DNA of 64,000 bases from Owenia fusiformis. Taxonomy: Eukaryota. The DNA lies in assembly GCA_903813345.2 (NCBI GenBank), contig CAIIXF020000001.1:11346001-11410000 (forward strand), given 5' to 3'. The notes beneath the pieces were generated by a model that searched no databases, had not been told where the DNA came from, and saw nothing but the letters and a program-made list of their open reading frames with translations. The position numbers and the translations under genes are program-made. Every line of letters starts with the position of its first letter. Position 1 is the first letter of the stretch. Below, in pieces: positions 6,001-50,745 of this stretch.

Positions 6001-7814
6001 TTATGTTTTGGAGATTATTTAAAGAGATCACCATCCAAACTGGGATTTCCTTAGTTAAAAATGAGCAGACATTATTTAACACTTTCGAATTCTAACATAA
6101 GTGTAGTACAGCATTTGCGTTTTTAGGTTTCTCCATTAACATTCTGAATTTCAAATTACCCAGATCCTACATTGTGTTCTCTGTCATTAGTACCAGTTGA
6201 TGTGTTTACCTTTGCGCAATCTGTTATCTTTCCCTGTTTTCTGGCATCTTTTGATGTAAATGTCTAGCTTATTTTTTGATTTCCCCTTCGAAAACAGTTA
6301 TTTGGATCAAAGTCTGGACGGAATGTACATCGTGTCATCTCAACCTTATGGTTTTTATACCCCATAGCACTTATTCTCCCGAGAGTTATCTGCAAGAAGT
6401 CAAAGGTTATTGTTCAGTAACCACAATTTATATTAGTTTGACGTGAGACATGCACACCATTCGAAACCAATAATTAGGCTAAAAAATGATGCTTTATTTT
6501 GTTGAGAGTGGCATGTTTTTAGAATTATTTCACCCATTAGATGAAACATATGGTTTCATGGAGTCAATGCTCGTTTTACATACTTGACATTATTTTTTAC
6601 ATCATGCAGGAATTCATTTATATACATGGCTCTGAGAATGCAGTATATTACCGGTTATATAATCAATGAATAGTCCTCGATCCTTGAATTAATTTTTATT
6701 CGTCGATGTATGTAAAAGTCTATAATTGATCTGTTGCGTTTAGCACATAATGCATGCCAGACTGGATCTATGTCATACCAGACGTAACGTATTCCCAAAA
6801 CAAAATACAATTGCGCTGTGTAAACGTGTTAAATACCAGATAAAAATAGTTGATACGTTGACCTTACCTGGTAACTGGCGGTTCATATCACATATCTGGC
6901 ATTCTAAATGTAGACGAATCGCGTCTTCATACTTTGTGTAAGTCAATTTAATTTACTTTTGATTATTTAAAGTTTCAAGAGAGATATACAAAATATGTTT
7001 GTAGCCACTGGTTCACTGATTAAATAAAATTTATTGTTCGTTATCCGACGTATTCCCAACTTTTAATTCCCAGAAAACAAGCGAAAATTGAATAAGAACA
7101 AAACAGAAAACATATTGTACATATTGGGCTTATGATAAAAGCGCGGTAAAATAATGATGGACGTAGTTAAAGTAACACCCATTAATTTTCCTGTGTACAC
7201 ATTAACAAAGGCCGAACGTAATACCTGGAACGTGCCTCGTTCGCAATTTCAATGTATTCGACGTTCGGCTTTTTACCGTATACTATTCTATCAACCATGA
7301 AATATAAACCATTGGGAAATTCCACAGACGAATGCTCTAATGCAATACATCGAAATCATCGGATTGATTATGAAAAAACAAGGATTTTCGATACATAACC
7401 CCATATACCACGGGGTAGCTCCATATATGTCCCCTCTCTAATAGAAATAATACATAGATCACCCATTGAGACAAAAGGATATGGCCGAATCATTTCGTCA
7501 TACTTTTTATAAAATTAACACAAGATAAACAAAATAAAAAATATATAAAATATGTATATTTTCACTGGTGATTACACTGATAAATCTTTATTTCAATCAA
7601 CCATCGTCCCAATTCTTGATTTCGATTTTTGTCTTTTACCTTTTCAAAAGCGCCCTCTTCCGTTTCAACAGCACCCTCTGTGGAGTAGTCCCATTGTCTA
7701 ATGAAGATCATTTAAAGCCCCGGATGTCGTGTCGTTTCGTTTGATACACAACTTAAGCCCCGGGTATTAAATAAGCCCTTGCATTGCATTGACCCGAATA
7801 CTTTCTATTTTCAG

Positions 7815-7997
7815 CATGTAAATATGACGGAAAGACATATAAACACGATAGCGTGTGGCAACCGTATGGAAATCAAGACCCATGTTTTGTTTGCAAGTGC
7901 CATAATGGAGAATTCTTTTGTGAAACGCAAAAATGTGACAAACCTAATTGCCCAGGAGCAGTAGCCAAGGAAGGGGAGTGCTGCCCGAAATGCCCAG
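7815..7997 (+). CDS. Collagen N-propeptide VWC (chordin-like cysteine-rich) exon
   Basis: Translates [60 protein letters not shown], the VWC Cys pattern (CxxCxC...CCPxC); tttcag acceptor, gtaaag donor, phase 1-1. Confidence 0.93.
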
Positions 7998-10900
7998 GTA
8001 AAGACATCACCCAAACATCTATTGTATTGTATTGTATCTTTATATCATTTAGCGTATATATATAAATTATATAATAAATATAAATTGTAATATTTAAAGA
8101 TTATACGACAATAATATACTGATTTCTCTCTCTCTCTCTTTCAGATAGTGAAGAACTTGAAAAGGTACAGAATAGCTTGCAATTAAGTATACTTTCATAG
8201 TTTAAACATAAAAAACTATCGAACTTCACTATTGTGTTTTCATGATATATTTCTATTTATTGTGAGACAGAAATACACCACTTTGTATCTAAGCACAGGT
8301 GCAAAAGGGAAAGGACCAAAAGCTGTAATGGAACCTAGCAAGAAAAAGCAAACTCTATTCGTGCATACCAGTCATAAGAAAAGAACCAAGAACCAATCCA
8401 AGACCAGAACACCAACGGACATTTCATTCATACTGACGTCATTACAATAATATATGTAGAAGCAAAAATAGAATTTTATAATTACTTTCAAGGGTCAAAA
8501 CCCATTTGCAAAGCTGTCAAAGTAATCCATAAAACACAGTAATTCACAATGACCATTATGAAAAAACTATGGCTGGTTTCGATCCCAAATTTTTCAACCA
8601 TTAAAGTCATTTTATACTTGAACGTTACTTATAGTATACCATCATTCGGAAATATAATATATTTTAATATTTCAAGATGAGGGCTGCTGCAGAAGAGAGA
8701 CTTGTGACAGTACAAGTAAGTATACGCACATTGAAAACATTGTATCATGTAAATATAACTAAATGAATGCAAACATTTGCTTAAAACATTTAAGACTAAT
8801 GAATGTGCAACGCGTTTTCAGTAAATGATAATTATCATTCAAAATACGTTACAGAATGTTCATATTGTGTACACAATTTATATACATTGGGGATTTGCTT
8901 TTAGGGACCTCCAGGACGCATCGGAAGAGCTGGACCTCGTGGAGGTCAAGGAGATAGAGTAAGTAGCTATGTCTTTAAATCATTCAGAATAACACATACA
9001 TTAAAAAAGTACATGAGCTGTCTAAAAATTAAAAAACGCGCACCTTATCTATTCATCAGATATAACTGATGGTTGCTTGACCAAATTTTCGTTGGCACAG
9101 TTGTACCCTCCACAATACTCTAGACGATTCAGCGGCAATACATAATATACATGTATATATGAGCTTAATATATATGATTATAAATTATAGGGTGACGAAG
9201 GTAGCGATGGTAACAATGGCGTCCCAGGGCCACCTGGTCCACCAGGTCCTCCAGGAGAGGTAAGCCGACTTTATTGAGCTTTTTTATTTGTTAAATGAAA
9301 TATTATAACTTGTTCAATTTGACCAGTCATTGATATTTAATTCAACATCATTTTTGTAAAGTTCTTAATGATATGTGATGTGAAATAAATGTGTATGTGT
9401 AGAGATTTCTTTTAAAAGTATTCTTAAATAATTTATTGAAAATAGCCCCTTGCTGAAATCCTCTATAACTTTAAAAACTCCAAGCTTTAAAAACAGGAAT
9501 TAGAAGAGCAAAATGGATACTATTACAAGTGATAAAAACTAAGGTTCTTAAACAGGACATGTGTCTTGATTTTCTGAGGATTTAGGTTAATACTACAGAA
9601 TAGATCACAGTATGATTTCAAGATAAAAAAAAGTCAAATAGAGCTGAATTAGTTTATGTTTGTTTTTTAACATTCCATGTGCAGTAATTGTCAAAAAGTC
9701 TACTGATAGATTTCTATTTTAAGTGAAATGTACTTGAAGTATTGTATGTAATTATATACCAGTGTCAAAATTTTACAACAATTAGTTTTGCATCCAAAAT
9801 ATATGAAAATTATAATTTAAAACAATAAAAAAGTGTTTCATGTGCATTTTAATTATTTTCTGTAGATTTGAATTAGTATTTTAGTGTAAATAGAATGTCG
9901 TATAGAATATTTACTTGTATATTCTATACAGGCACTGTAGTGTATTCTGTTTTCTTAGTTTTATTTATTCAGAAAAGTTAATATCTCCTTGATTCAATAT
10001 TCTGTTACTTTTATTTTTGGTAATGTGTTTTTTTTATTTCTGAGTGGATTCTCCTCAATATTATGTCTATATTTTGTTTGCTTTACATCCTTGGTTGCTT
10101 TGGTTACGTTATAGGCTGCAGCATCTACTTGGGACCAAGTTAGGTCAAACTGGCAGAACTCTGATAAAGCAGGCGGGGCTCAGTTCCCTCCTTCTATAGT
10201 TGCACAACAGGTACCATTGTCTGTGTGTCAACAAATAATCCCCTAACCCTCCTAAACCCCTAACATCATGTAACACAGTCTAAAACATCGAAATTTCAGT
10301 CTCTCTCTAAGGAGCTGGAATTTGGTTGGATGGTGAAATATGTGGTATTGCATCAGAACTCAAGAGACGAAAACCAGGACAGTACAAGGATCCACTTAAA
10401 TATTCATATTAAATGCAAACCATAACTGTTTCACCATTATGGAACTGAAAGCACTTATTTACTACTTATATTCTACAGTATTTTAATGGCATTGGTTACA
10501 GGCACAGGCAGCATATTGGGATACATTGAGAGAAAGCTGGCAACAAACTGAGAAGGGACCTGGCCCAAACGCGGCCTACCGTGGTCCAGCAGTGATGCAG
10601 CAGGTTGGGAAGTCATATCTTATTAACCTTAATGTTCTCAAGGATATGGATACGTTTCTAAACATGTCTAACATAACACACACTGTTGAAATATTATCTA
10701 ACTCTCTAATGAATAAAACAATTGTTATGTTGATAAAAAACAGGAAAATTAACTTTTACAAAAAGATTACACGTTCATTTTTATCACTTACATATTTACT
10801 AATGAATCTTAATATAAACTAGAGAACCATCTAAAATAAACTAATGATATTATTGTATTTTCAATGCAACTCTATGTTTAATGTAACTAATGCATTTGTA

Positions 10901-13900
10901 GTATTTACCTTTAAACATGCAATAGTCATACTTAAAACAAAACAAAAACATTTTTAGATAATATAAAATATTTAATTGAAATGAATTTCAGCACAAGTTA
11001 GTTCACTATATACAGAAAAATCATTTCTTATATCTAGGTTTGCTTCCATCCCCTCAATTTTTGTATCTTTTATTATAGGGTCCAATCGGTCCAAGAGGTT
11101 CACCAGGACAACCGGGTCCAGCAGTAAGTATTTTAATCAGGGTGATATATTCTGTAAAACATAACGAATCACGACATGAAGAATAAATATTTAGACTAAA
11201 GAATATGATAAAGCTTTTTAAGAGCTGAGTTTCAGGATACATGTTTATAGTAGCGTTGTAGCGTAGTTAATACAAAGTAGTTCTGCTGCCTGGAATAGCT
11301 TTACACTATTAAGGCGTTCTTTAGAATGTCAGACGCAACCTTATAGTTGGAAACGATTAATATTTTACAGACAGATTGTAAAAATAAACGTTCATGAGAA
11401 CAATGTTTTATTAACGGTTTAACCTAAGGAACAGGCACATCTCATCTTTGCATGTACAGTCTATTGAATTGTACCTACTCGAGCGCAATAAACAAGATGA
11501 ATTAACAACAGATTCTAGAAATTAAGATAAATGGGACAAAAAAAGAAGTTAGTTTCTTCATAACCAAGAAGCTGGCTAGCTAGCTATACCACATGTAACG
11601 GAAACTAACGGAAATGCTTGCGGTCTTATGTTACCCATGTCAGCATAATAAACAATTTGTATTCAGACTTTTTTGATGTTCTAATTTCGGACTTATGAAC
11701 TAGATCTAGCTACTCTGGTAAAAAATAAAAATTATTTTTGGTGGATTGAGCGTTGTCTGCGTCAAACATGCTGTTAAGTGAAAACACGTGGGGCACTACT
11801 ATCGACTACCCGAATATCCTAAAATAAATTAGTAAGGCTGGAAATGTTGTTTTTTGTATTGTTGGTAACCGCAGACTCACCACAAGGACATTTTTCTTAT
11901 TTATTGTCTCTTGTTTTAAGAAAAAAATTAAAATCAATGTTCTTGACATAAGGGTTTTCCAGAACAGTCTTGTTTCTGCTGGTCGCCGGACAGTTGGCAA
12001 AAACAGGATATAGATTTGACCCACCCGGGTCACCGCTAAAATAATATATTATTGCAAAGAAAATGAAATTATAATGAACCGATTTAGCCTTCTTAAATGT
12101 TTGAATGTTAATATGTTGACGTTTTGTTATAGGGTCCCCAAGGTTTCCAGGGTATTCGAGGAGAGGCAGGAGAGCCAGGACCACCGGTACGGATGCCTTT
12201 GATAACATGAAATATTTCTATAAAAAGAATTATAATACGAATTATCTACGAAAAGTAATATAATTTTAATATATACTTGATATTCTATTATATAATATAT
12301 ACATAAAGCGACATCCATAAATTAGAATAACATTGGTGAGAAATATTTATACAAAATAAACTAATTCTAATCTTTGTATATTTCAGGGTCCATCAGGTTT
12401 GAGAGGACCCCCAGGTCTTTCTGGTCTGCAAGGAAAAGATGTAAGCATTAGTCCTGAAAAGTTTAAAAGTCAACGTGCCCTAGTCATTACTTAGCTTTTA
12501 TAGCACAAGTATGCTAAAAAGTATAAACGCGTATTTATAGAAATAGTTTCACACCACTATTTTACCTGATCACATGTCTGAAAAGTCGCAAGATTCAACT
12601 GCAAACAGTTTATTCTCTTTTCAATCCGTTCTAACTGTATATCCTGGAGAGGCCACCCGCATTCATAAGTTCATAACCTAAACCGTTACTCCATGGATAA
12701 ATCTCAAATTTATTCAATTTTTGTGTGGTTCATGAATAATTCGAGGGGTTGCTAACAGTTCTATAAATCCTGATTAGATGGATTTACTTATGCAAGTTCA
12801 AGTGTGAATCCATTTGGTGTGGATTGGCTAAATCCAAAATGATCTGGGATTTAACTTTCGGCTGTCGGCTATCGGATTAACCTACTATTTTATGACCAAC
12901 TGACTTAAATATGAATAGTACCTGCCACTATTCCTTGCATATTTAAATGAGTTTTCCACAAAAAGTAAGTTAATCCGGTAGCCGACAGCCGAAAGTTGCA
13001 TTCGCGTATACAAGATAACATTTATTTGGATAATCCCCGGCACAAGGACTATAGTTAAATTCTTCAATGTTCCAGGGTGAAGTTGGACGTGATGGTGATC
13101 CCGGCTCAAGAGGTCTCCCAGGGTCTCCTGTAAGTTTTACTTATATATCTTGTATTAGAAGGGAAATTGCAGTATTCGTAAATGTTATACTTTTAAACAA
13201 GTAAAATTGCTAACATGTCATAATGGCTTAGCTATGAATTTTGGTCAATAAATCAAAAATGCTTATCTGTCTTTCCACTCAAGTTCCAAATTGAATTACG
13301 ATTATGTCTGGTTTTTGTACAACCTCCTTGCTCTCTTTCAACATGTCAGCTTTAGTTAGACCAATTACAAATTCCGATTTTGCTTTTCTGTGCTCCTTTA
13401 TTGTAGAGTGTGTAGTTTGCAGAACTATGAACGTAATAAACCATTTGTTTTAGGGTCCAAGAGGTCCATCCGGAATGCCAGGTATGCCAGGACCAAAGGG
13501 ACACAGGGTAAGTATAATATACCTTGAACAAGCGAATAATGTTCGAATATGATGTGTAACCTGGATAAACGGAGATTTAAGGCATGAGCAAAAAGATCAA
13601 TTCTAATTGGTCCATATTAATAAATGAACGTATAAGCATTCATTTGCCCGATTTGCTGCTTTACCACTATTTTATGTTTTTGGAATTTCATTTTAGGGTT
13701 ACCGAGGTCAACCAGGATCTAAGGGAGAACAAGGGCGTGGTGGTGAGAAGGGTCCCGAGGGATCCCCTGGTCCACAAGGTCCTCATGGACCAGTTGTAAG
13801 TACATGTACAGTTTCAATGTTTACTAGGATATAGCATCATGAAGGCTTTAAAACCAACATCAAAATGAAAATAACACAAATGTTCAATGATTGTTTCTCA

Positions 13901-16900
13901 AAAAGTTGACAAGCTAAAGCATATATATATGATATTTTATATAGTTATTACTTTATGCAGAAGAAATGCAATCCAATTCAGTAATTATTCTATCTTAAAT
14001 AATATCAATTTATAGGGAATCAATTGCATTGTGTTGTTGACTTAATCTTAATGCTTGTATCATCTCATGTTTAGGGTCCAAGAGGTCCAGCTGGTGAGCG
14101 AGGTAGAGATGGTAAACCCGGTCCTGCAGTAAGTATCCCTTCTATACAACAGCATGCAAGTGGACCAACATAGTTGTAATAGTAATAGAATAGAAAAAAT
14201 GGTTTGTACTTTCCTAAAAAAATATAATTTAGAAGTCGTCCATTCGTGCAAAATAAAGTAAAATATCACGCTTACTTGTTCAATATTTTAGGGTCTTAGA
14301 GGTGTTGATGGTCTAGGAGGTCCATCTGGTCCACCAGGTCCAATCGGTCAACCAGGTCCACCAGGATTCCCAGGCGCACCAGGAGCCAAAGTAAGGATTT
14401 GAGTGTGAAAAAATATATATCATTACACTATAAATTAGTCCTGATTATGATAGTATAGTTTTAATGCTGTAATTTACAACACTACTCCAATGTGCCTCCA
14501 AAAGCAGGCTAGCAATAACAAGACATGTGCGGCAAATCTAATCATCATAATTATTATATTATAGGGAGACAGAGGAGCACTAGGTTTGAAGGGTAATCAT
14601 GGTTTACAAGGTCCACGTGGTGAAAATGGAGCTCCAGGAGACGCTGGTCAACCAGGACACCAAGGTCCCCCCGGTAGAGATGGAGTTAATGGAGACAAGG
14701 GAGACAGAGTAAGTTTTCATAGTATTTATATTAAATGTTTATTTTTATATTTATTTACATGTCAGGTGTGAACCTTGGTGGATGGACAAGATGCGAGTAG
14801 AAATAATTTTGATTTAGCCTACATCATTAAATAAATAAAATTCAGTCAAAGTGATATCATTTTTGAAATACACTTTATAGAAAATATTCTGAACATTTGG
14901 CCTCACTAAAATGTGATACTTCATTGCTCCATATCACGCGAATTCAGTTTTCCGTTTTTTTCATTTTAGGGATCACCCGGTGGCCCAGGAAATCCAGGTT
15001 TCCCAGGACCCCGTGGCCAGAACGGACAAGATGGACAACCAGGCATTCAGGGAATCAAGGGAGACTCTGTAAGTTGATATTCCAAAGTTACTTTGAGACG
15101 ATTTCATAACTATTGCCCTTATTGTCAAAATGTTTGATATTTAATGTTGTTATCTGTAGGGCCAACCTGGACAACAAGGTTACCAAGGAGAAGCTGGACC
15201 AAAAGGTTCACCTGGTACTTCTGGAGATAGAGGTGCCCCTGGTCTTACCGGACCACCAGGCAAACGTGGATCAAGAGGTGCCACCGGAGCACCAGGACCT
15301 GCTGGCCTTCAAGGAGAGAGAGGTCCCCCAGGTGGTAGAGGTGCTGCTGGAGCTGATGGTCCTTCTGGTCCACCAGGTCCATCCGGTGAACGAGGAGAGA
15401 GAGGACCCAATGGAGAAGTTGGACCAACTGTAACTATATTATTATTAGTTTTCTATAATAAAAATATAATAATTCTAAAAAACGTTCGGTTGTATAATAG
15501 AAGTATTTTACATAATACGATCAATTGTTTCTATTTCAGGGCTCACCTGGTCCCCGTGGTTTGAACGGTCCACCAGGTCCAAGAGTAAGTATAATCTTAT
15601 AAACATATTATAAAGTAATCATAATCATAAATAACTTTTTTAATATTCCTGTAAGCTGTGATTCATTTGGATATAACGTTTTTGTAATTTCCTTTTTAAA
15701 GTATTTAGAATCTTAGACATAACATGTCATGTGTATTACTATGTATGTTTCTTTTAAAGGTCTATGGGTTCTTGTTGCTATTGTTTCTTTAAGTTTTGTA
15801 TTCTTGCAACTATTGTAGGGTATTGATGGCCGAGCAGGATCAGATGGTAAACCAGGACCCCCTGGTCCACAGGTAGACAAATGGCAACGATATAACACTG
15901 TTTGCTTCCCAACATTGCAACATGTGTTGAGACAAGTTTCAGACATGACGTGTAACACGTCAAAGTGAAAAGGAAACGGTTGATCGTGTTACACATGTGT
16001 TGACAGATTAAGAAACTTTTCTCCATACAGTTGCTGTTGTTTCATGAGTTCATTCATATAATGGTAATCACATACTAACTTATAGGGAACTAATGGATCA
16101 CCTGGTAAAGATGGCTTACCCGGTCCAGCTGGATTCCCAGTAAGTATGAGCTATACTGATCCTTCTAATTAGAGACGATATCATTTCTAATCAAACGACG
16201 CTCTCAAATGTTAACATAACATGAGCAATTCATTATCATCATTATTGCATAAAATTGTATTAATATCATTTCACATCAGAATAGTACTATAGCTTTAAAA
16301 GTCAAAAAAAGCTTAAGATTATATTTCCGACTCAATTTGGTATTTGGGCACGAATATATATTTACCTATACAATAACATAGGGTTTTGAAACCTATAGTA
16401 CATTAAATTATTATCAAACGCTACGTATTACATTGCATCCAATATTATATGTATTTCGCCTTCTTCACAGGTATATTTATCATTACCTAATTGAGAATAT
16501 ACGCGTACTAAAACGTTGAATGCCTATTTTCATTTATTAATTATAAACTTTTTGTTTTATCTTTTTTCATATTAATGTTATTTATTATTTCATATTTTTT
16601 AAATTATATTTTATGATAAAGTTATATTTTGTTCGTTAGACGTAAATATTTTTATCTTTATGAATTATTACAATTTTTATTTTACCTATATTCTATTCTT
16701 TCTGTTGAAATAATTTAATAATAGATATATATAAGTACTTTCATTTTTGGTATTTCAGTGACAAAACATATAATTTTGTTAATGATATTGTTATAGATGT
16801 ACTAATTTTATCATAGCTGTCGTTAAACGTCTCATTTTCTACATTTAACCCAGTGCTATTTACAATAATAATTGCTTTGGTATGTTTCAATGAATCAAAT

Positions 16901-19900
16901 ATTTTAGGGTGAAGCTGGTCAAGACGGCAAACCAGGTGAACAAGGACCACAAGGTATCCAAGGTCTTCCAGGTATGCAGGGAACGCCCGGCCAGAGAGGA
17001 TTCCCAGTGAGTTCATATAATTAGTATCAAAATATATCATATAAAGCAATAGCGATGATTCGATTACTGACTAGCATTATAATTTACAGGTTTGATAATA
17101 TTCTATATTTTATTTAAGTAAGATCTATGTTATAAGTGATATCACTTAATTCAAGATGAATAAAAACAGAAGGAGCTCACGTGTCTCGAACTGAAGACCT
17201 CGTGGTTATGACACAGCGCCTAGTTTGGCTTGTTTCTTATTGATGTGATGTATTCTAGGGAGAGGCTGGAAAAGATGGAAAACCTGGAGAGACTGGACCA
17301 TCAGGACCACAAGGGGACCGAGGCAAACCAGGCAACGATGGTAAACCAGGACCACAAGGAGCTCCCGTAAGTTACACTAAGTAACTATATAAATGTGATA
17401 ATATTTAGGATTTTTGTTCCTCAGATTTCATAATCAATAATATGTTTAATATCGTGAATTCCAATTCAATTCTGATTCATGAATGCTTTTCACATGATAT
17501 AAGCTTTGATTTCATTATTTGATTAATTTCACTTTAATGCTTTCTTTAGCAATATGATTATACTACAATACAATCACCAGGCCATGTAAATGATATCCAT
17601 GATGTCTATTTTGTATAGGGAGAGGCCGGTGATAGAGGTCAGCCAGGTAATCCAGGACCACCAGGATTCCAGGTATGTTCATATAAACAAATATAAAAAT
17701 GTATATACAGTAAGGGTATTTGACACAACAGCAATTATAGTTTCATGTCATTTGGGCATATAGGTCCGTGTTTCTGGTATAATTTGATTATCTAAAAATA
17801 TTTTTATGTTACATTGTATATTTCTCATATCTATGAATCATGCTACTTAATATGATGATATGTTTATTTCAGCATCATTGAGCGGCACAATGTCGAATGA
17901 TCAACAACGCTTTGTGCCCCTTCTCTGCGAAACTTCGTTTATTTTTAGTACAATACAGTACAACAGTTGACTTTGTTTTCAGCGATTTTGTAATATCTAT
18001 ACATTTGACATTAATTAAAGTTACATAATAAGAATAAATTCAAAAAATAACTTTAAAGTATACATACATTTTATTTAAATGATACAAGTTTTGTTATATG
18101 GTATTTCGGGCGGCTATTGTAGGGACTCCCCGGAGAGAACGGCAAAGCAGGAGAGCCAGGCAAGCCAGGAGAAGTCGGACCTCCTGGACCACAAGGGTCT
18201 AGGGGTGATGTTGGTCCACCGGTGAGTCAGGATGTGATCACAACACATCAAGGAAAGGACTAACCAAATAACTGCGCAACATTACATAACCACTGGACAT
18301 AACTCCATACCTAACACTCAGCTTTAATTGTTTTCAGTACTAAGGATGGCAACCATGGAGTAACATTAACTATAATGTCATCAACTAATCATCGCATAAT
18401 AATGTATCACAATTCAGGGTTTACCTGGTGAAGCAGGCACAGCTGGTGAACCCGGCAAAAATGGAGAAATTGGACCTCCTGGCCCAGCCGGGTCTCGTGG
18501 TGGCGTTGGCTTGCCGGTATGTGAGTGCCTGCTGCAAACGCACTTGGGCTCGGACTGTATGTCTGTTTTGTATGTTCAGTGTCGTTGCATCATACATTGT
18601 ATTGTCGTCTCTGTGTGCTTGAAACATCAGCCCTTGCATGTTAGGCAACAGTATGATTATTAGTGACGGAAGGTCGTCGACTTCTGCAAATGATGTCTCA
18701 ACAGGTGCATTAAAGAGCATGTAAGCATAAAGAAAATGTTCACTATGTGCATATTTAGGGTCTTCCTGGAGAAGTAGGACAACCAGGAACTCCTGGAAAG
18801 GATGGTGATGCTGGGGCAGCTGGTCCCCAAGGTGCACGTGGTGCGATTGGATTACCCGTGAGTGACCGCGATTTCCACACGTAGATTTGAAAGCTAGTCC
18901 ATTCAATACCCTTTGTATTTTAGACTCCGTAGTACTTTTAAGTTTCATTATTATCCTTTCGATCCTAGCTTACGAGATTACCTTTTCCTTGCTTCTAACC
19001 CTTGTAGGCACCAACATTATTACATCTTATACATCAACGAAATCAGAATTGACATCAGAGGAAAATTAGAAAAACATTCCTCTTCATTGCTTATATGTTT
19101 CTACTGTTTTATTGGTACTATACCTAGTACAAGTGTACAACACTCACAAATGAACTTTGGAGGAACAGCTAAATAAACAAACGGATTTTGGAAAAAACAA
19201 TTGGGCGAGTTGTACTCGTATTTTTACTAATTATGATTTTCTGTCTGGCATTTGAACTTTTTGTCTTTCGTTGTCTGGGATCAAAAGGTTCCAGTGCCTT
19301 TGCGGGTTGAGTTAACCTTCAGAGAGCTTTCCACCATTTCAATATCTCTTCTCAGCATCTCTTGGTGGTGGTTTACATCTTGAGATATCCTGAAACTGCG
19401 GTCCTATTCCACATACTATTTATGTTTCAATTGTTTACCTTTGTATATTTTCCTTTTATATTTTGCTGTCATTCAATTGCATGTTTATTTGCATTCAGTA
19501 TTTCTTTTTTGAATTTGTTAGTTCGTTCGTAATTGTCATGCATTCTTATTAATATTATTGCATGTATGTCAAGTCCTTTGTTTCACATTAACATGTTCAA
19601 CATCTAAACAAAATGCCAGTATTTGATATTCTTAACTGAATTAACCATAATTTTCTTAATTCAATATATGGAAGCTATTTAGTAAGATGCTTACTAAAAA
19701 TACTGATTTATAAAAAGATGAATATAGCTGCATGAGTGAGGGATATTATTTCTAATTGTTGTTTATTATGTTTTCAAAATGGAAAACGAGCAGAGGTAAG
19801 TGCACCCATATGGTACATTGATACAACTTTTATCAAATTTGATTCTGGAATTACTCTACGGTAACCTTTTTATAGTCCAAGTTGTACCTAAATAGATGGT

Positions 19901-22900
19901 GTTTATAAGCTGATCCCCTTTAATGTAATGTAAACAATCACGTCGAAATATATTATCACAAATAAATGTAATAGAGCAAATTAAACTAAAGATGTAGAAC
20001 AAAGTGTAACATATAACTTTGTGAAAGTACAAAGACTTCCTGTGGTAACAAAAGAACACGTTAACTTATAGGGAGAGCGAGGTCAACCAGGAGAACGTGG
20101 CGAGGCTGGAAAAACTGGAGCACCAGGAGATCGTGGACCAGGTGGACCCTCAGGAAAAGATGGTGAACGAGTGAGTTAATTAAAAAGTAGTTCATCGTCA
20201 AAAAATGAATCAAATGACATTATTAGATACTATATACATGTATGAATTTGAAGAAAAGTAGTCTACTTGGGATTTACTAAACAATTTAAGTTACATAAGT
20301 TAAAGCTAATATGTGGCCCCATCCCGCTTGGTTCTGTTATTGTTTTCTTGGTTGACTCTGATCGTTTCTTCATAAACATTTATGCTAAACATGTTTGTTA
20401 TCTAATACAGGGACTGCCTGGAGAACGAGGAGAGCCAGGACCCCAGGGAACTGCAGGTTTAGTGGTGAGATAATATTCTTTTAGCTTAGCATTCAAATAA
20501 TATCAATGATTTAAAACTAAAAGTACCCTAAACTACAAGTTGGAATACTCATATAATCAAAGTACATGATTTATCATAAACTTACTGAAAATTAAAAATC
20601 AAATCTCACTGGAGTATCAGACATTGAAAAGAACAAAAAAACTGATTGACATCAACTAGTGACAGAGTGTAGTGTAGTTAAGTGACGATACGTGTTTCTG
20701 AAATTCCAGGGTCTGCCAGGTCAACGAGGAGAGCCAGGAACATCAGGACCAAAGGGAGAACGAGTAAGTTAGGCTTGTCTGGATTTAAGTACTAGTATTT
20801 ACAGTAGAGTAATATGCTTTAAAATGTCAATTGGTAGGTTAAAGTCCTTCACAGTATGTAGTACGTTTGAAAAAAACAATTACAATTTACAATTACAGTA
20901 ATAACCTTCATATTTGTAATTACTTTTACAATAGAAATTCACTGTCACAGGTATGTATGCGGTGTTCGCAGGGGTTGGGTGCGTTGGTTGCGAACACACC
21001 CCCTTCTTGACCAAATGCCCAAAAATTTCGTTATTCAATACTCAGAGGAAATAACCATGTGCTCCAGAGAAAATGGTGGAGAAGCTAGGCTTCAAGTGCA
21101 AGCTATAATGTTTTTTAGACACACCCCTTGAAAAAATCCCAGGGACGCCCCTGGTATACATGTAAACTTGTACTTAAGTAAAATTGTTTATCTAGATGGC
21201 ATTATTAATTGTGTTCTTTAATTGATTTACTTTTCCTAAATGTTATATAGATGATTTCTTTGTTTTAGGGTAACAGTGGAAATTCTGGACCACCAGGACA
21301 ACAGGGTAAACAGGGTCTCCCCGTAAGTATGCAGTATTCAATAGACTCATTGAATATTAATGTTGATTATAATCAACCTCGTACATACATAGTAAGAAAT
21401 CAGAAAGGTATAATTTTTTCATCAATTATTCCTACATTATATTTGCGTTGCAAACTGTTAATAGGGTGAAGCTGGAACCCCTGGTCCAAGTGGGCCCCAA
21501 GGGTTAGCTGCTCCAAAAGGTGAAAATGGACAACCAGGTCCAGCTGGGCCTAGAGGAGCGACGGGTAAATCAGGAAACAGAGGGGCTCCAGGAACACCAG
21601 GACCAGTTGGTCTCCCAGGAACTCCAGGACTTGCCGGTAACCCCGGTCCTAAAGGTGACACTGGCGCTGCAGGTCCCCGAGTAAGTTCTAATTTTTTTCA
21701 TAAGCATTGAAAATATTAACATTGAATTTTATATTATAGGGTGAACAAGGTCCTAAAGGTGCAGTAGGTCTCCCAGGTAAAGATGCACCAAAAGGTGAGG
21801 ATGGCGCTGCAGGGCCACCAGGTCCAAGAGGTGCCCCAGGTAAAACTGGCAACAGAGGGGCTCAAGGGTCACCAGGATCTCAAGGACTGCCCGGTACCCC
21901 TGGACTTCCAGGCCAGGCTGGGGCAAAGGGAGACGGGGGAGCAGCAGGTCCACGTGTGAGTAAGGCGTGATCAACTGAGCCTGATGACCACTCACATGTA
22001 ACAAATGATGTTATAATTCAACTCACCTATAACTTTTTTCTCTTATAGGTCTAACTATAACACATGGTATGATACTAGCATACAAATGTACCAAGGATGT
22101 GCAAAAGGATGTGTCCATGCAGAAAAATAATATACATTATGATAACATAGAATATAACTTGTAATGAAAGCTAAGCCTACTATTCTAATCTCGAGATATG
22201 CATATAATAGATGTTTATTTTAATAAACCTAATTGAAACATTATGAAAATGGTTTGACTCAACCAGTTTGCTTGTTGTTTGGATGATATTATCATTTAAA
22301 ATGGGTTTGTTTTGTTTGATTTAAACCTGCATGTTTATTATTTACTCAGTTTTTAGGGTGTCCACTATCTTTAGCCTAATACTATCATGTAACCCTGTAT
22401 GTATCTTGATTTGTTTGAGTTATCTATCTTTTTATTAATTCTGATTGTGTTATATTACTTATAAATCATTTAGGTTGTAACTTTATTTTACCCGAATATT
22501 ATCTGTTATTCCTTTTGAAACAATTGCTTTCAAATGGTATTAGTTTTGCCCCAAAATTATTTAAGTTGATATCAATAGAATCTCTTTTTTATTTTGCCTT
22601 TCAAGTATTCTCGACCCTTGTGATTTTCATTTCGATTAACCTGAGTATATTATATTTATGTTTTGTTTTGCATTCTGTCCTCTATCCTTTAGATATTCTG
22701 TCGCTTAATTTGACCCTCTTTTCAATGTCCAAAATCAATAGTATAGCCTCTAACTACTCCATAATGCAATGTGTTTGATATTTGATGAATAGGGTCCCAA
22801 TGGTGCTATTGGTGTCCCAGGTCCCCAAGGAGAAGCAGGTCGAGCTGTAAGTATAACTTTTACACATACTGTACATCTAAATTTTACAATCTGACATATT

Positions 22901-25900
22901 TTTGTTTATAGTATATTTTAAAATTCTTTGTTAATATAATTGTGTATAGGCTCTGTAACTTGTTATATCAACTGATTCAATGATTCTCCTAAGAAAATAA
23001 ATGCTTCTGACATGAATGATTCTTAAAATAGGGAAAAGACGGTATCCCAGGTAGACAAGGAAAGAGAGGAGATCCAGGTGTTCCCGGAGACGCAGGACCA
23101 CCAGGTGCCCCAGGACGACCAGGTCAATCAGGATCTACTGGCCAACCTGGAAGCCCAGGTACCCCAGGAGCAGCAGGCAAAGAAGGAATCAAGGTATCAA
23201 TTTTATTGAATACTGGATCTGGGCGCTAAGACTGTTATCTTAATCAGAAATATGTTGCTCTCTTATTTATTTATTTTTAGTTCATTTGTTCATTCTTCAT
23301 ACATAACATCTTGTTCTCTTATTTAGAGTTGCAGGAAGACTTGATTGGTTCATTACATAGTGTACCAATATATTCGATAGGAATACTATAAGTATTCTAT
23401 ACTAGAGTATTAGGTTTACTCAATTCAATGTTTACAATTTAATGACATGTTACTTATTCATCTCTTCTATTACTTAGGGAAGCCGTGGTGAGTCTGGACG
23501 ACCAGGTAAGGATGGTATCAACGGAAACACAGGACCTCAGGGACCCCCAGGAGAGAAGGGCGGTAATGGTGAAGATGGCAAGGATGTGAGTGTTGCTCAG
23601 TTGCTGGAACATGAGAACTTAATACAATATGTCCCATTGTTTAGTTATATAATAGATCTTATTGCTAAATTAATGAAATTATCCAATGCAAATAAGCAAT
23701 TTATTCTATTCAAAATTGCAGTATATCATAAGAGTATATTCTAGGTATTCTTTTAGTTTTGCATAGTGCTGATATTAAACGAAACTTATAATGAGTAACC
23801 AATTTATAATAAGATGCATACCTTGCCATTTGTGCTATGATAGGGTTTACCAGGTCCCCAAGGTCCACCAGGCCCACAGGGAGAGCGTGGTCTCGTAGGC
23901 TTACCCGGTCTGAGAGGAGAGCGTGGTCCAACTGGTGCTGGAGGACCAAGAGTAAGTTGGATAGTTTGCCTAATATTAGCACTTACTAATACTTCTACAT
24001 GTGTGTTATATTTAGGGTGCACCCGGTGTTCAGGGACCTCCCGGTCAAGCGGGTAACCGTGGATCACCAGGAATGCCAGGTATGGCTGGGGAGAGAGGTC
24101 CTACGGGTCCCGCCGGAGGACGTGTGAGTTACATTCACCAGACTAAGCATGTGCCTTGCCACACGCTTACGATCACCTTGACGTGGTCGAACTTGCATTT
24201 CATGTCCAAAGAAGTTGCTGCTCCAGTAGACTCCGATAGGAATACTTTTTTTGTAGCTTTCCCTACCAATTTCGCCTTATCCGATGAAGGTTTTTGTTGC
24301 ATTCCTTCAGACATATCAGTTATCTCAAGCATATACGTTTGTTGGTTTGGCAGAAAGGAGAAGGTGACACCCGGAGTTTCAAGTAAACGTTTATTGTGAA
24401 AATAAATATATTAAAGTTAAGTTTTCTCAAAAGATGCAGACTCAACAACCATTCGTTCAAATCATATTCTGATTCATAGACGCTGCATGTCTTCTTCCTC
24501 CTTGGCCCCTTTGAACGCCAATCTCCATAGATCACATTCCCAAACCCATATGCGTGCATGTTTAGGTACTTCCTCGCAAAGCTACATATACTATATGAAT
24601 TCCCATGAGGCGTCTCTTTGTATCTTTGAAATGCTGTTGAAACATAGATGATGGTGCGCAACAATGAATTTAGGAAACAAGTTGGGCATGTGTTTGAAAG
24701 AAGAAGGGAGGCGGTTTATGATCGATGAAGTTGTGTAGGGTCTGTATCTTTAAAAAGACGAAACTTCGGGTGAGACGGGCTGCCCATGTAGTAGTTTAGA
24801 TTGCTATGGTATTACAAACACAGTCTGCATGTGTTTAAGGTGTGCCCTATGGCCAGCTGAGTAATTATTTTAGTTGTACATATATGAGCTATTATACCTC
24901 ATGAATGTTTGCCAAATGGACGTGATATTTCTGTTGGTGTGTGTATGAGACTAGCTTCTATAGTTTTATATTCAGTTTTACCTTGTATTGTATAAATGTG
25001 TGTTGCATTTTGGAATGCGATGTCAATCCAACTGCTGGAATCAAAGCACCAACTATTCAATTGTCTTCTCAAGATGTACTTGGTTTATTATATCGTCTCA
25101 GACTCCCGAGAGCCAAATCAATTACTATATATTAACAAACTTTTATTTTGCATCATGGAATAAGGTGTAATTCATTAAAGATGCAGCCCCTATCATTAAA
25201 CTCTTTACGCATTCATCACATTTCTACTTCATTTGCACATTAAATGCACTGGAGCATATCCACTACTGTTTCGCAACGTATTCATCGCATGAACATTGAA
25301 TATGACGTTTTTAATCAATACGTAGAATATGATATATTTTAAAGCATAGGTGAAGGTGTTTGGTCAAAAGTTTTCTTTAGAAATGAATTATACTGGGTCT
25401 GCATCTTTAGAGGATAAGATATGGATAATGTAGAATTTCTTTTTACTTAAATAACACTGATTTTTTAATGTATTAATTTAGAGATATATGTGTATTAAAA
25501 TTATGTAAGTGATGATCATAAACCATACAATTGTAAATATGTGTATGATAATGACTCGCGTATGCAAATTAGTTAAACCGTATGCTCAGCCAATCAGGAT
25601 CAAGATAAACATCTAAGCTTGTATTCGCGAATGCAAATAGCGGCTGTTGGCCACCGGATTAATCTACTATTTTATGACCAATTTATTTAAATATGAATAG
25701 GACTTGCCACTATTCCATTCATATTTAAATGAGTTTGTCATAAAATATTAGGTTAATCTGGTAGCCGACAGCCGAAAGTTGCATTCGCAAATGCAAGCTA
25801 AATGTTCTAACTGTTTTCGACAAATGGGCTACTTAACATATTTTTGATTTTTTAGTCAAACAATTTGTGAATGGTTCTAATTTTGATTTTGATTTTATAA

Positions 25901-28900
25901 CAGATTTCCTGAGAAAAAGTAACAAAATATTTTTGAAACTGGATTAAAATTACCTTTGTCATTTTAGGGTGAATCAGGATCAGCCGGAAAAGATGGACGG
26001 CCAGGTGACAATGGACGACCAGGACCACAAGGCAACCCTGGACCACCAGGTCTCACTGGAGAACAAGGACACGAAGTAAGTTTATTTAGAAGTAAGACAG
26101 ATATACTGTAGTTGTATTGTAGCTGTACTGTAGTTAGTACTATAGAATGCCATTTCATGTTTTCTTTTTAATAGCAATACACACAGACTCAGTTATATCA
26201 CGTTTTATATTTGCTTAGGGTACACCCGGTAAAGATGGTGCCCCTGGTCTTCAAGGACGCCCAGGAGACAAAGGACCACCCGGCTCTGCAGGCAACCCAG
26301 GACCACAAGGTCTCCCAGGACCTCAGGGACCCCCAGGCGCAACCGGATCTGCTGGTTCTCCAGGAGCCCGTGGTGAGAACGGAGAACGTGGTCCAGCTGG
26401 TGTCCGAGGACCTCCAGGTGCTAGAGGCTCAGCAGGATCTCCTGGTGTACAGGGAGAGAAGGGTCAGCGTGGAGATAGAGGAAACAAGGGAGATAAGGGT
26501 TGGCAGGGTCTTCCAGGTCTCCAGGGTGTGACTGGTAACCCAGGTCCCCAGGGAGAGGATGGTCAACCAGGTCCACCTGGTCCAGCTGGTTCAAGAGTAT
26601 GTAAAACTCTCCAAATTCATTTGATAATATAAACTTGTGATGATAATACAATCTGAAATAATATTAAATTCTTCCGTTTTTTTGTACATTTATATATATA
26701 AATCATTAATGCGTTGTAGGGTCAACAAGGTAATCGTGGTCAACCAGGTCAAGCAGGATCTCCCGGACAACCAGGTTCCATTGGACCCCCTGGTCCCCGT
26801 GGTCCCGAGGGTAGCGACGGGCGCAATGGGCCACCAGGACCTCCAGGTCCACCAGGTCCCCCAGGTCCTCCAGGTGGTGATGCTGGATGGGGTGGAAACA
26901 TTTGGTCAAGACCAGGACCAAAAGGACCCGACCCACTTTTGGTATGTCTTCACTTGTATGTTTCTCCTCTCCACCATGCTGAAATTGATAAACTTAATAA
27001 AAACCATACAAGTTTGAATATATAAGCGCAAATGCCAAAGGGAACGGACCAAAAACTGTAAAGAAAGCTAGTAAAACTGGGGCGTTATTTGATGATTTAT
27101 TTATAGGGTGACGAAGCACCAAAGGATGTCTTTGAAGCCATGAATCGTCTTGAAAAGGCCATTGAAACAATTAGGAAACCCGATGGTACACAAAAAGCTC
27201 CAGCAAGAACCTGCAAAGATCTCGCCAACTCCAATCCCGAATTTGAAGATGGTAAGTATTACTAACCAATTATGTCCAAATGTAGTGCCTATCATCATGT
27301 TCATTGATGATATTCCAATGCATGTAATTGTCCTCTAAGTTGGATTTGATATGTTTTCATCATATATATTCTGTTGATTGTAGGTATGTACTGGATTGAT
27401 CCTAACCAGGGCAGCATTGCTGATGCCATCCAAGTGTGGTGTAATATTGGCGATTATGAGACTTGCATTCTGCCAAAACCAGAAGAGGTAAAAACTTTGC
27501 TACATTAAAATGAATATTTCATCATTTATTTTAATACTTTTGTCTTGTAATATATTCGCGATTCATTTTACTCCTAGCAACACTAGTAGATGGGTTAACT
27601 ACATTTGGACTTCATTGTATGATGCAAATGTCCCATTTGGCATGGAAGTTCCTTTGTGCAATAGAAATAAATTTATCCAAAGACACAAGCTAGATGGCGC
27701 TTTATATTGGAAATATACACATTTTTTAAAATGGCCGCCAAAAATTCATCAGAGACAATATATTTGATTCTGTGCATGCTACAAGTATAAGATTGGTGTC
27801 AAAAAATACAGCAATGTAGTCGTAGAATCTATTTTATTAGATCTTGAGTCTTGAAAATTAAGAACTTCCACTTTATATTCAAAATATATGCATTTTTCAA
27901 AATGGCTGCCAGAAATATAACAAAAAAGATATCTTCGCTTCTAAGCATGCTACAATGATAAGAGTGGTGTCTAAGTATACATTAATATTGGGTTGTAGAA
28001 TCCATTTAAATAGGTCTTTCTTAATAAGACTTTTCACTTTATAGGAAATTATGTATTTTTAAAAATGGCCACCAGAAATATAACAATGATGATATCCTCA
28101 CATCAGTGCATGCTACACTGATCCGATTGGTGTCAAAATTTTATATTTATGGGGTAGGAGAATCAATTTTATTAAGTCTTGTCAATCATCGGATACTTCT
28201 TCTGCAAACTATATCAACTGCGGCGTCCCTAAGGGATCCATCCTAGGTCCACTTTTATTTTTGATTTACATAAATGACTTACCCGATGATCTTTTTGGAA
28301 AGGCATTTATCTACGCTGATGAAACATCACTATATTACCCCTTCGATCCATCCGATCCTGACATGCATACTATCAATCATGATCTTAATATCATAACTAA
28401 CTGGTCTAAAAAATAGAAAGACAGAGGAAGTTATCTTTCAAAGCCAGCGCTGTGTATTTGCTACTCCGCCACCTTTAGCCAAACTTGGAAATGGGGAAAT
28501 TAAAAGGAATAATCTTCATAAGCATCTAGGGTATACTTTTGATTATCTTCTTTCTAACAAAAATCATATATATGACATTGTCAAGAGAGTACAAAAACTG
28601 CTTAATCCATTGAAGGCACTTACATCAAAAATTAACTCGAAACATTTGGAGACAATGTACAACTCATTCATAAGGCCTCATTTTGATTACGCAGACATTC
28701 TTTATCATTCATCAACTCAAGTACTGATCAATATCCCTAGCAATTTACATTATCAGGCTGCATTATTGTGTTCTGGGTGTCTCCATGGCTCTGATACAGG
28801 TAAAGTTATGGGGGTCTTAAACTGGTGCACACTATCCCAAAGGAGGGAACAACACATTCTTAACTTCATGTACAAAGTAATCAGAAACCAGGTACCTTCC

Positions 28901-31900
28901 TATGTATCTTCAATATTTGAAGAATTCAAAAATCCAGCTACCAGAAGAACAAGCAATACAGAGGTATACCAAATTCCTATAAGGTCAACTGCCCAATTTA
29001 TTAAATCCCCTATTCCTAATGCAATATCACTGTGAAACAAATTACCTTAACCTCTTTTAGAGTATGCCTTAAAATTTTCCCTACGATCATTCAAAAAAGA
29101 AAGTAATAAACACTATCTGCCCAAGAGAATAATGAGTTCAACGTCCCTGATTAATTTAACAGGGTCTCAAGAAATCACTCTCAACTGAGCTCGTGTTGAC
29201 TTATTTTTGAAAGCAAGACTTTTTGCACACCAATTTACATTTATAGACTCGGCTCATTGTTCTTGCGGCAAACCTGAAACACTAAAACATCTATTTTTCA
29301 AGTGTCCTCTATGCCAAATTAATAGGCATGCCCTGATGGAAGAGGTCAACAAAATCATTTTTATAATAAGATCAGCCAACTAACAAACATGGATGATAAA
29401 CTTAATTTTCATTTATATGGTGACGAGACATTATCCTTAGCAGAACTAAGTAGACTTCTTATCATCGTCAGCAATTTTCTCCATGACAACAAGACATAGC
29501 AAAGAGGTCTCATCTAAGCCCTGGAGAACTCATAATATATATCTTGTTTTTTACACATCTACTTGGCACAAACCGCTCTGGTCCCTGGGATACCCTTCAT
29601 GCACAGTCGTCCTCAAACAACTAAATACTATTCTTAATTTTTTACATGTAAGTGATGGCCAACCTATAATGCCAATATGGCGATTGGTGGCCGAAAATGT
29701 ATTGACTTTACTTCAATAAAGTTTATACTATAAAAAAATTATAGTTTTCACTTTATATTGGAAATATATGCAGCTGAAAATATAACAAAGATTGTATATT
29801 TGCTAACAAAGATTGTACCTTTGCTAACAAAGATTGTATCTTTGCTAATAAAGATTGTATCTTTGCTTACAAAAATTGTATATTTGCTAAAAGTTTCTTT
29901 ACTTCTGGGCATAATATTTCATAAAATTGGCTTCAAAATCTACATTTTTTTGGGAATGTAAAATCTATTTAATTACTCAGATGCAAGTAGGTAGTTACCA
30001 TTTTCCCCACCAGGTGGATAATTTGGGTGAAATAACGTTGCAGGGTATTACAAAGTTCCCTTAAACTTGAATATTCTTAATTTTTAGTGGTTCGCATTTC
30101 ATATTACTCTTTTGTATCTGATAGTTGTACAAATTAAAATATCTCCAGTTAAAGAAAATATTATCTGCACAACAAAAGATATTTCACTTTTTGTGTTTTA
30201 TAACATGGACTATGGGGAATCTCCCTGACCTAAATTTCACATTTTCGAAGAAAATTCTATTTTAAAGTTGATGGACTCATTTCAAAACCACATTTCTTGA
30301 TGTATTTTTTCATGACGATTCCAAATTCAACATCAGTTAAGTTAGACTGAATTTTGAATTTTAATGACAAAAATTGTTACTACTCGCATCTAGCAAATTG
30401 GATTATGAGTCTTAAAAATAATAGTTTTCGCCTTAACACAGCAAATGTGTATTTATCTTTCACATGTTCTTTTTACTCAAATTCACCAGAAAGACCAGTG
30501 TCTCTTTAAAAACTTGCAATAAACATGTATCTGCAATGATAGTGCAACTTTAGTTGTTGCAATGCAACATACATAAGAAAGAAATGTGATAGATACATGT
30601 AGAAACCACGCAGGACAGACATACATATGTACCTACATAGTTAGAAAGGGCCAGAAACCTTCTGGCGAGAGAAAATCTTGAAGATCGGAATAGATTTCAA
30701 GGGCTGCATATTATGACAGTATTGCAGAACCCTCTTCATCTCCTCTGACCAAATCATGGACGATGTCTCTGTTTACCGAGTCTTCCACTAATCCAACCAA
30801 CAAACTTTTAAGCTTGTTGTTGATTGGCAACCATTTTGAAAAATACATGTATGTATACACATACAGCACTGAATATTGTCATATTGGGAAAAATATTCTT
30901 ATTTTCTCATTTGAACAATTAAGAGATTGAGATTTTAAGATTTTAAACGGTAATATGCCTCACCATGAGTACTTCCTGGCCATAGTTTCCGTCATCGCAA
31001 ATTGATATTCAAAATTACACTTTCAAACTATTCTACTTTTGAAGAAGTTTAAGAGCCCTTGTTAGATATACTTTTTTGTAATATTTTCCACACCATTGAA
31101 AAAAAGGCGTTATTTTCAATAAAAAGTGAAAATGTTTGTTAACTAATAGACATACAGTACAATATCAGAATTTCCGCTGATTTAAACATTTTGGTGACCA
31201 TTTAGTCAATGAATGCTAAAAATTATATTTAGACAATAAAAAAAATTGAGATCTAACTTAATATAATGTAGCCATACCTTGACGACATATCTAGTAAGTA
31301 ATAGCTAATCAACTCCTTCTCTGGGACATTTCGAATTTTCTGAGGCATTAATCATAAAATTAACACAATCTTCAATTTAATTGAGTACATATGGCCGGCC
31401 ATACTTTGAAGGAATCTGACAATAATTGCAAAATCATACATTCTGTAAGACAGACGAAGAACTGACAGACTGGCGGACGGAGGGCTTCACTATATTCCCA
31501 CTGAACTTTCTTCGTTGGGAAAATAAAGACTATAAACCTTATTAAATGAGTTCTACCACCCATTAATGTATACTTGGACATCAATCTTACTATTGTAGCA
31601 TGCATACACGTGAAGATATCATCTTTGTTACATCTCTGGCAGTCATTTTGAAAAAGGCATAATTTTTTGATATAAAGAGGAAGTTCCTAATTTTCAAGAC
31701 TCAAACCCATACTAAATTTATTCTTCACCCACAAATGTATATTTAGGCACCAATCGTATCATTATAGTATGCATAGAAGAAAATATATTGTCTCCGTTGT
31801 ATTTTTGGTGGCCATGTTGAAAAATTTGAATATTTCCAATATAAAGCACCATCTGGCGTGTGTCTTTGGATAAATTTGATTCTATGGTCCTAAGGTACTC

Positions 31901-40978: not shown

Positions 40979-50745
<9,767 letters not shown>

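Follow-up and report, generated by a model that had tools for sequence, protein, structure and literature searches.

The strength of collagen fibrils comes from covalent cross-links that lysyl oxidase brings about from lysines in the telopeptides, and the segment adjoining the telopeptide decides the removal of the N-propeptide, which limits fibril diameter. Vertebrate genes each encode one telopeptide, in a junction exon, with different telopeptides supplied by different genes (alpha1, alpha2), and telopeptide features are varied by combining the chains of those genes. In contrast, one gene offers two in the 64-kb window analysed here (64,000 nucleotides (nt) of Owenia fusiformis; GenBank assembly GCA_903813345.2, contig CAIIXF020000001.1, positions 11,346,001 to 11,410,000 of the forward strand; coordinates below count from its first letter), where a fibrillar procollagen gene carries a pair of similar N-telopeptide exons, A and B. 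The reading favoured here, at a probability of roughly 0.78, is that a tandem duplication left A and B spliced as alternatives, yielding two N-telopeptide isoforms from one fibrillar procollagen gene.

The nearest collagen precedent is let-2, encoding the alpha2 type IV collagen of C. elegans, in which exons 9 and 10 exclude each other and the choice between them switches during development (PMC2119826). Both loci hold tandem, similar collagen exons of which one or the other would enter each transcript, the let-2 alternatives differing mainly in a short non-Gly-X-Y segment; let-2 encodes a basement-membrane type IV chain in which that segment is a helix interruption, whereas the present gene is fibrillar and the segment is the whole N-telopeptide, with a candidate cross-linking lysine. 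Vertebrate COL11A1 also varies the N-terminal non-helical region of a fibrillar procollagen by alternative exons, 6a and 6b, which were long regarded as mutually exclusive (PMC7558312). Unlike A and B, these exons belong to the variable region of an N-propeptide of TSPN type (clade B) and encode neither a telopeptide nor a cross-linking lysine. To our knowledge, 6a and 6b are not homologous copies of one another.

The D-K-A-G-G-A-Q of exon A resembles the type II collagen telopeptide, and we know of no vertebrate telopeptide with the W-x6-W helix motif predicted here. Sea-urchin fibrillar procollagen reportedly has an alternatively spliced N-propeptide, and its N-propeptides are said to mature differently between chains; there the variable part is said to be the repeats of the N-propeptide and not a duplicated telopeptide exon. 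Like A and B, vertebrate A-clade N-telopeptides lie between the minor and major helices and present an acidic residue, lysine and small residue in that order, as around the -DEK- of alpha1(I) (PMC5120351). A full-text literature search, with most subscription journals outside its scope, returned no paper on fibrillar collagens with alternative telopeptide exons or with mutually exclusive exons of any kind, and the new element here would be tandem-duplicated alternative exons that replace the whole N-telopeptide of such a chain; the two isoforms may already appear among the automatically annotated gene models of public databases.

The gene runs on the + strand from about 7.8 kb to 33 kb of the window and, judged by its translated domain order (VWC, minor helix, N-telopeptide, major helix, C-telopeptide, COLFI), is a fibrillar procollagen of A-clade type. 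Exactly two coding exons separate its minor helix from its major helix, and each alone covers the entire segment between the two:

10115-10210, + strand: N-telopeptide exon A (SDKAGG form), 96 nt, 32 residues, acceptor tatag/GCT, donor CAG/gtacca
10502-10603, + strand: N-telopeptide exon B (TEKGPG form), 102 nt, 34 residues, acceptor ttacag/GCA, donor CAG/gttggg

The original prediction, drawn up from the DNA letters before the analysis reported here, had described two such exons sharing W-D-x-x-R-x-x-W-Q-x-[ST]-[DE]-K and a terminal QQ, with different contexts around the lysine; the shared motif, the QQ ends and the positions hold in the sequence, in BLASTP and in a motif count, and the contrast between SDKAGG and TEKGPG holds in the exon translations. 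By BLASTP the first 21 residues of A and B align, with 9 of 21 identical and 14 of 21 positive (E 2e-6), and at the DNA level the likeness is concentrated in the first ~60 bases. Since the second halves and the flanking introns are not clearly alignable, the pair points to a tandem duplication, and to an old one. The back-translated core TGGGAY-N6-MGN-N7-TGGCAR, allowed one mismatch at most on both strands of the 64-kb window, gave two matches, which are exactly exons A and B (0.04 expected; none of 100 shuffles gave two or more), and no third copy of this core was found there. Both exons are in phase 0, both have lengths that are multiples of three, and a 291-nt intron lies between them.

Transcript evidence was sought among 15 sequencing runs from one organism, 12 of which contain part of the stretch, none of those listed being recorded as RNA; four runs were mapped to 8850-12450. 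Two of them, X6 (60 contigs) and X7 (2 contigs), belong to separate studies, and their joints were listed at a 2% threshold. Because their contigs are confined to exons, save for traces at depth 1-3, and their joints are GT..AG, both are taken as transcript assemblies. In X7, contig 9 (734 nt, depth 9.8) runs 8905-8958 to 9191-9259 to 10502-10604 with no differing letter, joining the minor helix to exon B and skipping A, and contig 10 (1505 nt, depth 13.5) runs 10150-10210 to 11079-11123 to 12133-12186 to 12387 onward, passing from exon A into the major helix and skipping B. In X6, contig 4 (depth 11335.5) likewise runs from 10130-10210 to 11079 onward, skipping B with no fork, and a piece within exon B (10531-10590) reaches a depth of 4490; the flanking piece 8905-8958 stands at 20618, above both A and B. 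Both exons are thus abundant in mature RNA. A further X6 piece, at depth 9413, ends at 9260, a stop that would reflect a fork in the assembly graph, both exons starting with GC.

Five joints were listed from the 62 contigs, all GT..AG, and neither the double-inclusion joint 10210->10502 nor the double-skipping joint 9259->11079 is among them. Alternative use, as originally proposed, gains support from the 9259->10502 and 10210->11079 contig joints from two studies, and neither of the contrary outcomes named beforehand (a dominant 10210->10502 joint, or an exon never spliced) was found, both exons standing in spliced contigs and 10210->10502 not being among the joints listed. Within the joints listed, these contigs support an apparently exclusive use of A and B. 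The donor at 9259 would be spliced to 10115 (A) or to 10502 (B), and the acceptor at 11079 to 10210 (A) or to 10603 (B); the expected outcome is two chain isoforms differing only in a telopeptide segment of 32 or 34 residues. Two large raw-read RNA runs with the same species label, X13 and X15, gave zero reads on the 3.6 kb of a gene that reaches a depth above 10,000 in another run of that species, which counts as no test; tissue without expression, the label or a filter may account for this.

At the protein level, the lysine is kept in a [ST][DE]K context in both exons, and what follows differs, K-A-G-G in A vs K-G-P-G-P in B, as does the linker from the lysine to the major helix, of 14 residues in A and 16 in B. 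AlphaFold2 single-sequence models place a helix over the conserved W-D-x-x-R-x-x-W-Q-x-[ST]-[DE]-K stretch, at residues 6-18 of A and 2-18 of B, ending at the lysine and followed by an unstructured tail; the two tryptophans, seven apart, would lie on one face of the predicted helix, and both versions would present a predicted short amphipathic helix ending at a candidate lysyl-oxidase lysine. Vertebrate procollagen N-proteinase (ADAMTS-2-type) cleaves an Ala-Gln or Pro-Gln bond between the minor helix and the telopeptide. Spliced at the 10502 acceptor, the one that the contig uses, exon B opens with A-Q, while A opens with A-A-A-S and has no Gln before W-D-Q; as a lead for later work, B but not A may offer a candidate N-proteinase Ala-Gln bond.

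In metazoan fibrillar collagens, a survey found telopeptide cross-link sites to take the form X-K-X'-X'', in which Gly or Ala predominates at X' and Pro at X'' (PMC5120351). Measured against this description, exon B (E-K-G-P) fits in full and exon A (D-K-A-G) at X' only, and the C-telopeptide P-K-G-P-D-P also fits. It is plausible, on the translated exons, that the choice of exon switches both N-propeptide processing and cross-link chemistry, in that the isoforms would differ in telopeptide docking for cross-linking and perhaps in N-propeptide removal. Candidate partner sites for cross-linking are retained in the chain, namely K-G-H-R in the exon 13454-13507, near helix residue 84, and P-K-G-P-D-P in the C-telopeptide (26882-26941). 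The former is presumably similar to the vertebrate Lys-87 site.

Selection between A and B probably rests on two unusually weak donors. Scored with a leave-one-out matrix from the 40 exons of the gene, the donor of A, at 1.9 bits, is the fifth weakest of 40 and that of B, at 0.9 bits, the second weakest, the median being 10.0 bits, so that the originally noted weakness of gtacca and gttggg is confirmed relative to the gene. Donors just as weak occur in two exons that look constitutive (15819-15872 and 23032-23193), so weakness does not set the pair apart, and the acceptors of A and B are not weak (ranks 32 and 25 of 40). For exon B the acceptor had been left as either 10502 or 10508; the former is used by the sole contig crossing the joint and scores 7.3, whereas 10508 scores 0.3. 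Two candidate causes of exclusivity were rejected on the sequence of the pair: frame-based decay, both lengths being multiples of three, and U12-type splice-site incompatibility, the donors not being U12-like. Downstream of the two donors lie the following elements:

10222-10227, + strand: UGUGUG stretch, 12 nt downstream of the exon A donor, the sole TGTGTG in 9260-11078
10243-10264, + strand: CUAAC motif pair, +33/+50 from the exon A donor, from the motif count
10668-10702, + strand: CUAAC motif pair, +65/+95 from the exon B donor, from the motif count

The UGUGUG, at a distance of 16 nt from the pair after A, is the sole TGTGTG within 50 nt of any of the four CTAAC pairs in the window, both strands counted. 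A CTAAC pair no more than 100 nt past the donor occurs in 3 of the 40 exons (A, B and 18123-18221), the chance that a random 100-nt intronic window holds at least two motifs being P = 0.0128, and all three exons belong to duplicated clusters. The third pair (+39/+90; 18222-18321) trails 18123-18221, the first exon of a cluster of three 99-nt exons described below. CUAAC repeats are bound in C. elegans by ASD-2, the orthologue of Quaking, and a neighbouring UGUGUG by SUP-12; ASD-2 moreover turned a splicing reporter for the mutually exclusive exons of let-2 (PMC3875643), a likeness to the present gene, where CUAAC pairs trail both exons. CUAAC pairs together with UGUGUG would be the kind of element bound by splicing factors of the STAR family (ASD-2/Quaking) and of SUP-12 type, and by this analogy STAR-type factors beside the weak donors might, at low confidence, set the ratio of A to B.

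Several observations weigh against alternative use of A and B or against its functional consequence. Of the four joints that the original prediction expects, 9259->10502 and 10210->11079 were seen, and the other two, 9259->10115 and 10603->11079, are absent from the joints listed. Contigs drop rare variants, and low-level transcripts that include both exons or lack both could escape them; a double-inclusion form would moreover stay in frame and escape nonsense-mediated decay. Steric exclusion was rejected as a cause of exclusivity given the 291 nt between A and B, and docking/selector RNA pairing was rejected as well, the inverted repeats in 9200-11130 being short, AT-rich, 72-93% complementary and indistinguishable from background. 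The CUAAC/UGUGUG observation is post hoc, and CUAAC also resembles the branch-point consensus. The helix models are single-sequence predictions with a mean predicted local distance difference test (pLDDT) of 68.6 (A) and 67.3 (B), which is moderate only, and since both exons keep the lysine and the predicted helix, they may differ little in function. Lysyl oxidase failed to oxidise a short -DEK- peptide in vitro (PMC5120351), and local sequence may therefore be insufficient to set cross-linking. No orthologous N-terminal region was found in the protein, metagenome, prokaryote-genome and structure searches detailed below.

Some of these points would suit a model in which A and B are independent cassette exons, with transcripts of both exons (66 residues, two lysines) or of neither at meaningful levels: every combination of the two stays in frame, the intervening intron is long enough for splicing, contigs cannot show the absence of a form, and in zebrafish the col11a1a exons 6a and 6b, thought exclusive, were later seen together in a 6a-6b form (PMC7558312). 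That model is nevertheless improbable, in view of the absence of 10210->10502 and 9259->11079 from the five joints listed, the high-depth X6 contig that runs from A directly to 11079 with no fork, and X6 depths for A and B that each lie under that of the flanking exon. Far less probable again is an origin of the two transcript forms in separate gene copies or haplotypes with one exon each; the evidence covers the window, yet A and B lie 291 nt apart within one gene, and the contig pieces 8905-8958, 9191-9257, 10500-10604, 10150-10208, 11077-11123 and 12133-12185 have no differing letter vs the window.

A different kind of alternative accepts the splicing and holds that the two telopeptides are functionally interchangeable, the duplication being kept by regulatory subfunctionalisation or by drift. 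The shared core, lysine, terminal QQ and predicted helix-plus-tail layout speak for this possibility, as does the abundance of both exons in one run, X6. It is regarded as possible but doubtful, given that divergence outside the core is strong (only 21 residues align) and yet both exons keep an open frame, are spliced and reach high expression, a combination suggestive of selection for two separate forms; A and B also differ at just those positions after the lysine that are described as conserved (PMC5120351). Alternative splicing of A and B into two N-telopeptide isoforms stays the preferred reading.

Searches for relatives were made with several parts of the gene. Exon A extended by 11 residues of intron read-through gave 20 candidates among longer proteins, none of which scored, and a homologous-protein search with the VWC exon gave no candidate. 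A COLFI exon matched two fragments (142 and 157 residues) among longer proteins and gave 439 matches at E <= 0.001 among protein representatives; the best 150 of these are all fragments (66-602 residues, identity no higher than 67%), and none reaches the N-telopeptide. No usable match was found in the ESM Atlas, and a PDB sequence search with exon A gave none at E <= 10. A metagenome scan with the VWC exon found five loci, with collagen exons or the W-D..R..W-Q motif in none of the five, and the telopeptide motif in prokaryote genome contigs gave 17 matches, all bacterial or archaeal and about the chance number estimated from the information content of the pattern.

Around the telopeptide pair, the gene is laid out as follows:

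7815-7997, + strand: VWC-domain N-propeptide exon, splice sites read from sequence
8145-8164, + strand: putative 20-nt N-propeptide micro-exon with AG/GT borders, restoring the reading frame between the VWC exon and 8677-8715
8677-8715, + strand: 39-nt N-propeptide exon, to which the 30 loose letters before 8905 in the transcript contigs correspond exactly (8686-8715)
8905-8958, + strand: minor triple-helix exon 1, a Gly-X-Y run, joint 8958->9191 in an X7 contig
9191-9259, + strand: minor triple-helix exon 2, Gly-X-Y, upstream donor common to A and B, joint 9259->10502 in X7 contig 9
11079-11123, + strand: first major-helix exon, 45 nt, common downstream acceptor, encoding the GPIGPRG start, joints 10210->11079 and 11123->12133
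26720-26941, + strand: last helix exon and C-telopeptide, putative donor
27107-33054, + strand: C-propeptide (COLFI) exons, with a reverse-transcriptase fragment in a long intron, from Pfam

The VWC assignment rests on a Pfam match (PF00093) on 7793-8062 of the window (E 6.4e-10, 39.6 bits, cut-off 27.6), and that of the C-propeptide on PF01410 (COLFI), which matched each of the four exon translations submitted to it (E 7.7e-13 to 8.4e-23). The two minor-helix exons encode 41 Gly-X-Y residues. Between VWC and COLFI lie 36 Gly-X-Y exons, spanning 8905 to 26881, mostly of 45, 54, 99 or 108 nt, all in phase 0 and with AG/GT borders. COLFI profile positions 82-116 were not found in the listed translated frames of 27506-32520, and this intron may hold a further, small C-propeptide exon. 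Within the same ~5-kb C-propeptide intron, a similarity to RVT_1 (E 7.1e-07, at the Pfam cut-off) on 28093-28413 lies in open frames at 28093-29032, which are probably a retroelement fragment. Elsewhere in the window, on the - strand, 35316-36227 is a long open frame of acidic D/E/N-rich repeat with a period of ~10 residues, overlapping simple repeats in other frames, and 45840-46244 and 58609-59463 are two open frames resembling exons of unrelated genes.

The helix itself contains four further groups of similar, adjacent exons, for which the median X/Y-position identity over 119 same-length exon pairs, 0.14, serves as baseline:

18123-18221, 18418-18516 and 18759-18857, + strand: three similar 99-nt Gly-X-Y exons, candidate alternatives, X/Y identity 0.41-0.68
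20411-20464 and 20710-20763, + strand: two similar 54-nt exons, candidate alternatives, X/Y identity 0.42
21465-21680 and 21740-21955, + strand: two similar 216-nt exons with a 59-nt intron, candidate alternatives, X/Y identity 0.50
23844-23951 and 24016-24123, + strand: two similar 108-nt exons with a 64-nt intron, candidate alternatives, X/Y identity 0.46

Whether the telopeptide pair is one of five mutually exclusive clusters (two telopeptide, three 99-nt, two 54-nt, two 216-nt and two 108-nt exons) is an evenly balanced question, exclusivity in the helix being inferred from length arithmetic and a stagger test and not from transcripts. If all Gly-X-Y exons from 11079 to 26881 are counted, the major helix has 1206 residues, and with one exon per cluster it has exactly 1014; the usual fibrillar major helix has 1014-1020 residues (PMC2852846). 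The stagger test scored hydrophobic and opposite-charge pairs against axial shift, with a D period of 234. All 24 one-per-cluster combinations gave peaks at 235 (z 2.1-2.8) and 701 (z 2.9-3.8), near 1D and 3D, whereas the all-exon chain gave z of -0.9 at 234 and -1.5 at 702, a contrast in favour of the 1014-residue models; the strongest peak of these models, at 863 (z 3.9-4.6), is however no multiple of D and speaks against a one-per-cluster chain. Both 216-nt exons carry the same single Gly-to-Ala break (APK) at the same triplet (21510-21518 and 21785-21793), and inclusion of both would place two helix breaks 72 residues apart. X7 contig 10 ends, by arithmetic, ~4 nt beyond the exon 17619-17672, at the entry to the cluster of three 99-nt exons, and no 31-mer common to exons and able to explain the break was found. 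Should the helix clusters be alternative, the gene would resemble insect muscle myosin heavy chain, a different protein encoded with clusters of mutually exclusive exons (PMC2257972).

If A and B are alternatives, exchanging the telopeptide through the choice of exon would offer another, and simple, means of fitting cross-linking or propeptide retention to the tissue, and the two isoforms would form a natural pair for probing the role of the sequence around the telopeptide lysine. If the helix clusters act alike, the length of 1014 residues would be held while blocks are exchanged, with up to 48 chain variants on a major helix of constant length; both the cross-linking telopeptide and defined fibril-forming helix blocks would then be variable, and chain diversity would arise by splicing one gene, as in insect muscle myosin, instead of from a family of alpha-chain genes.

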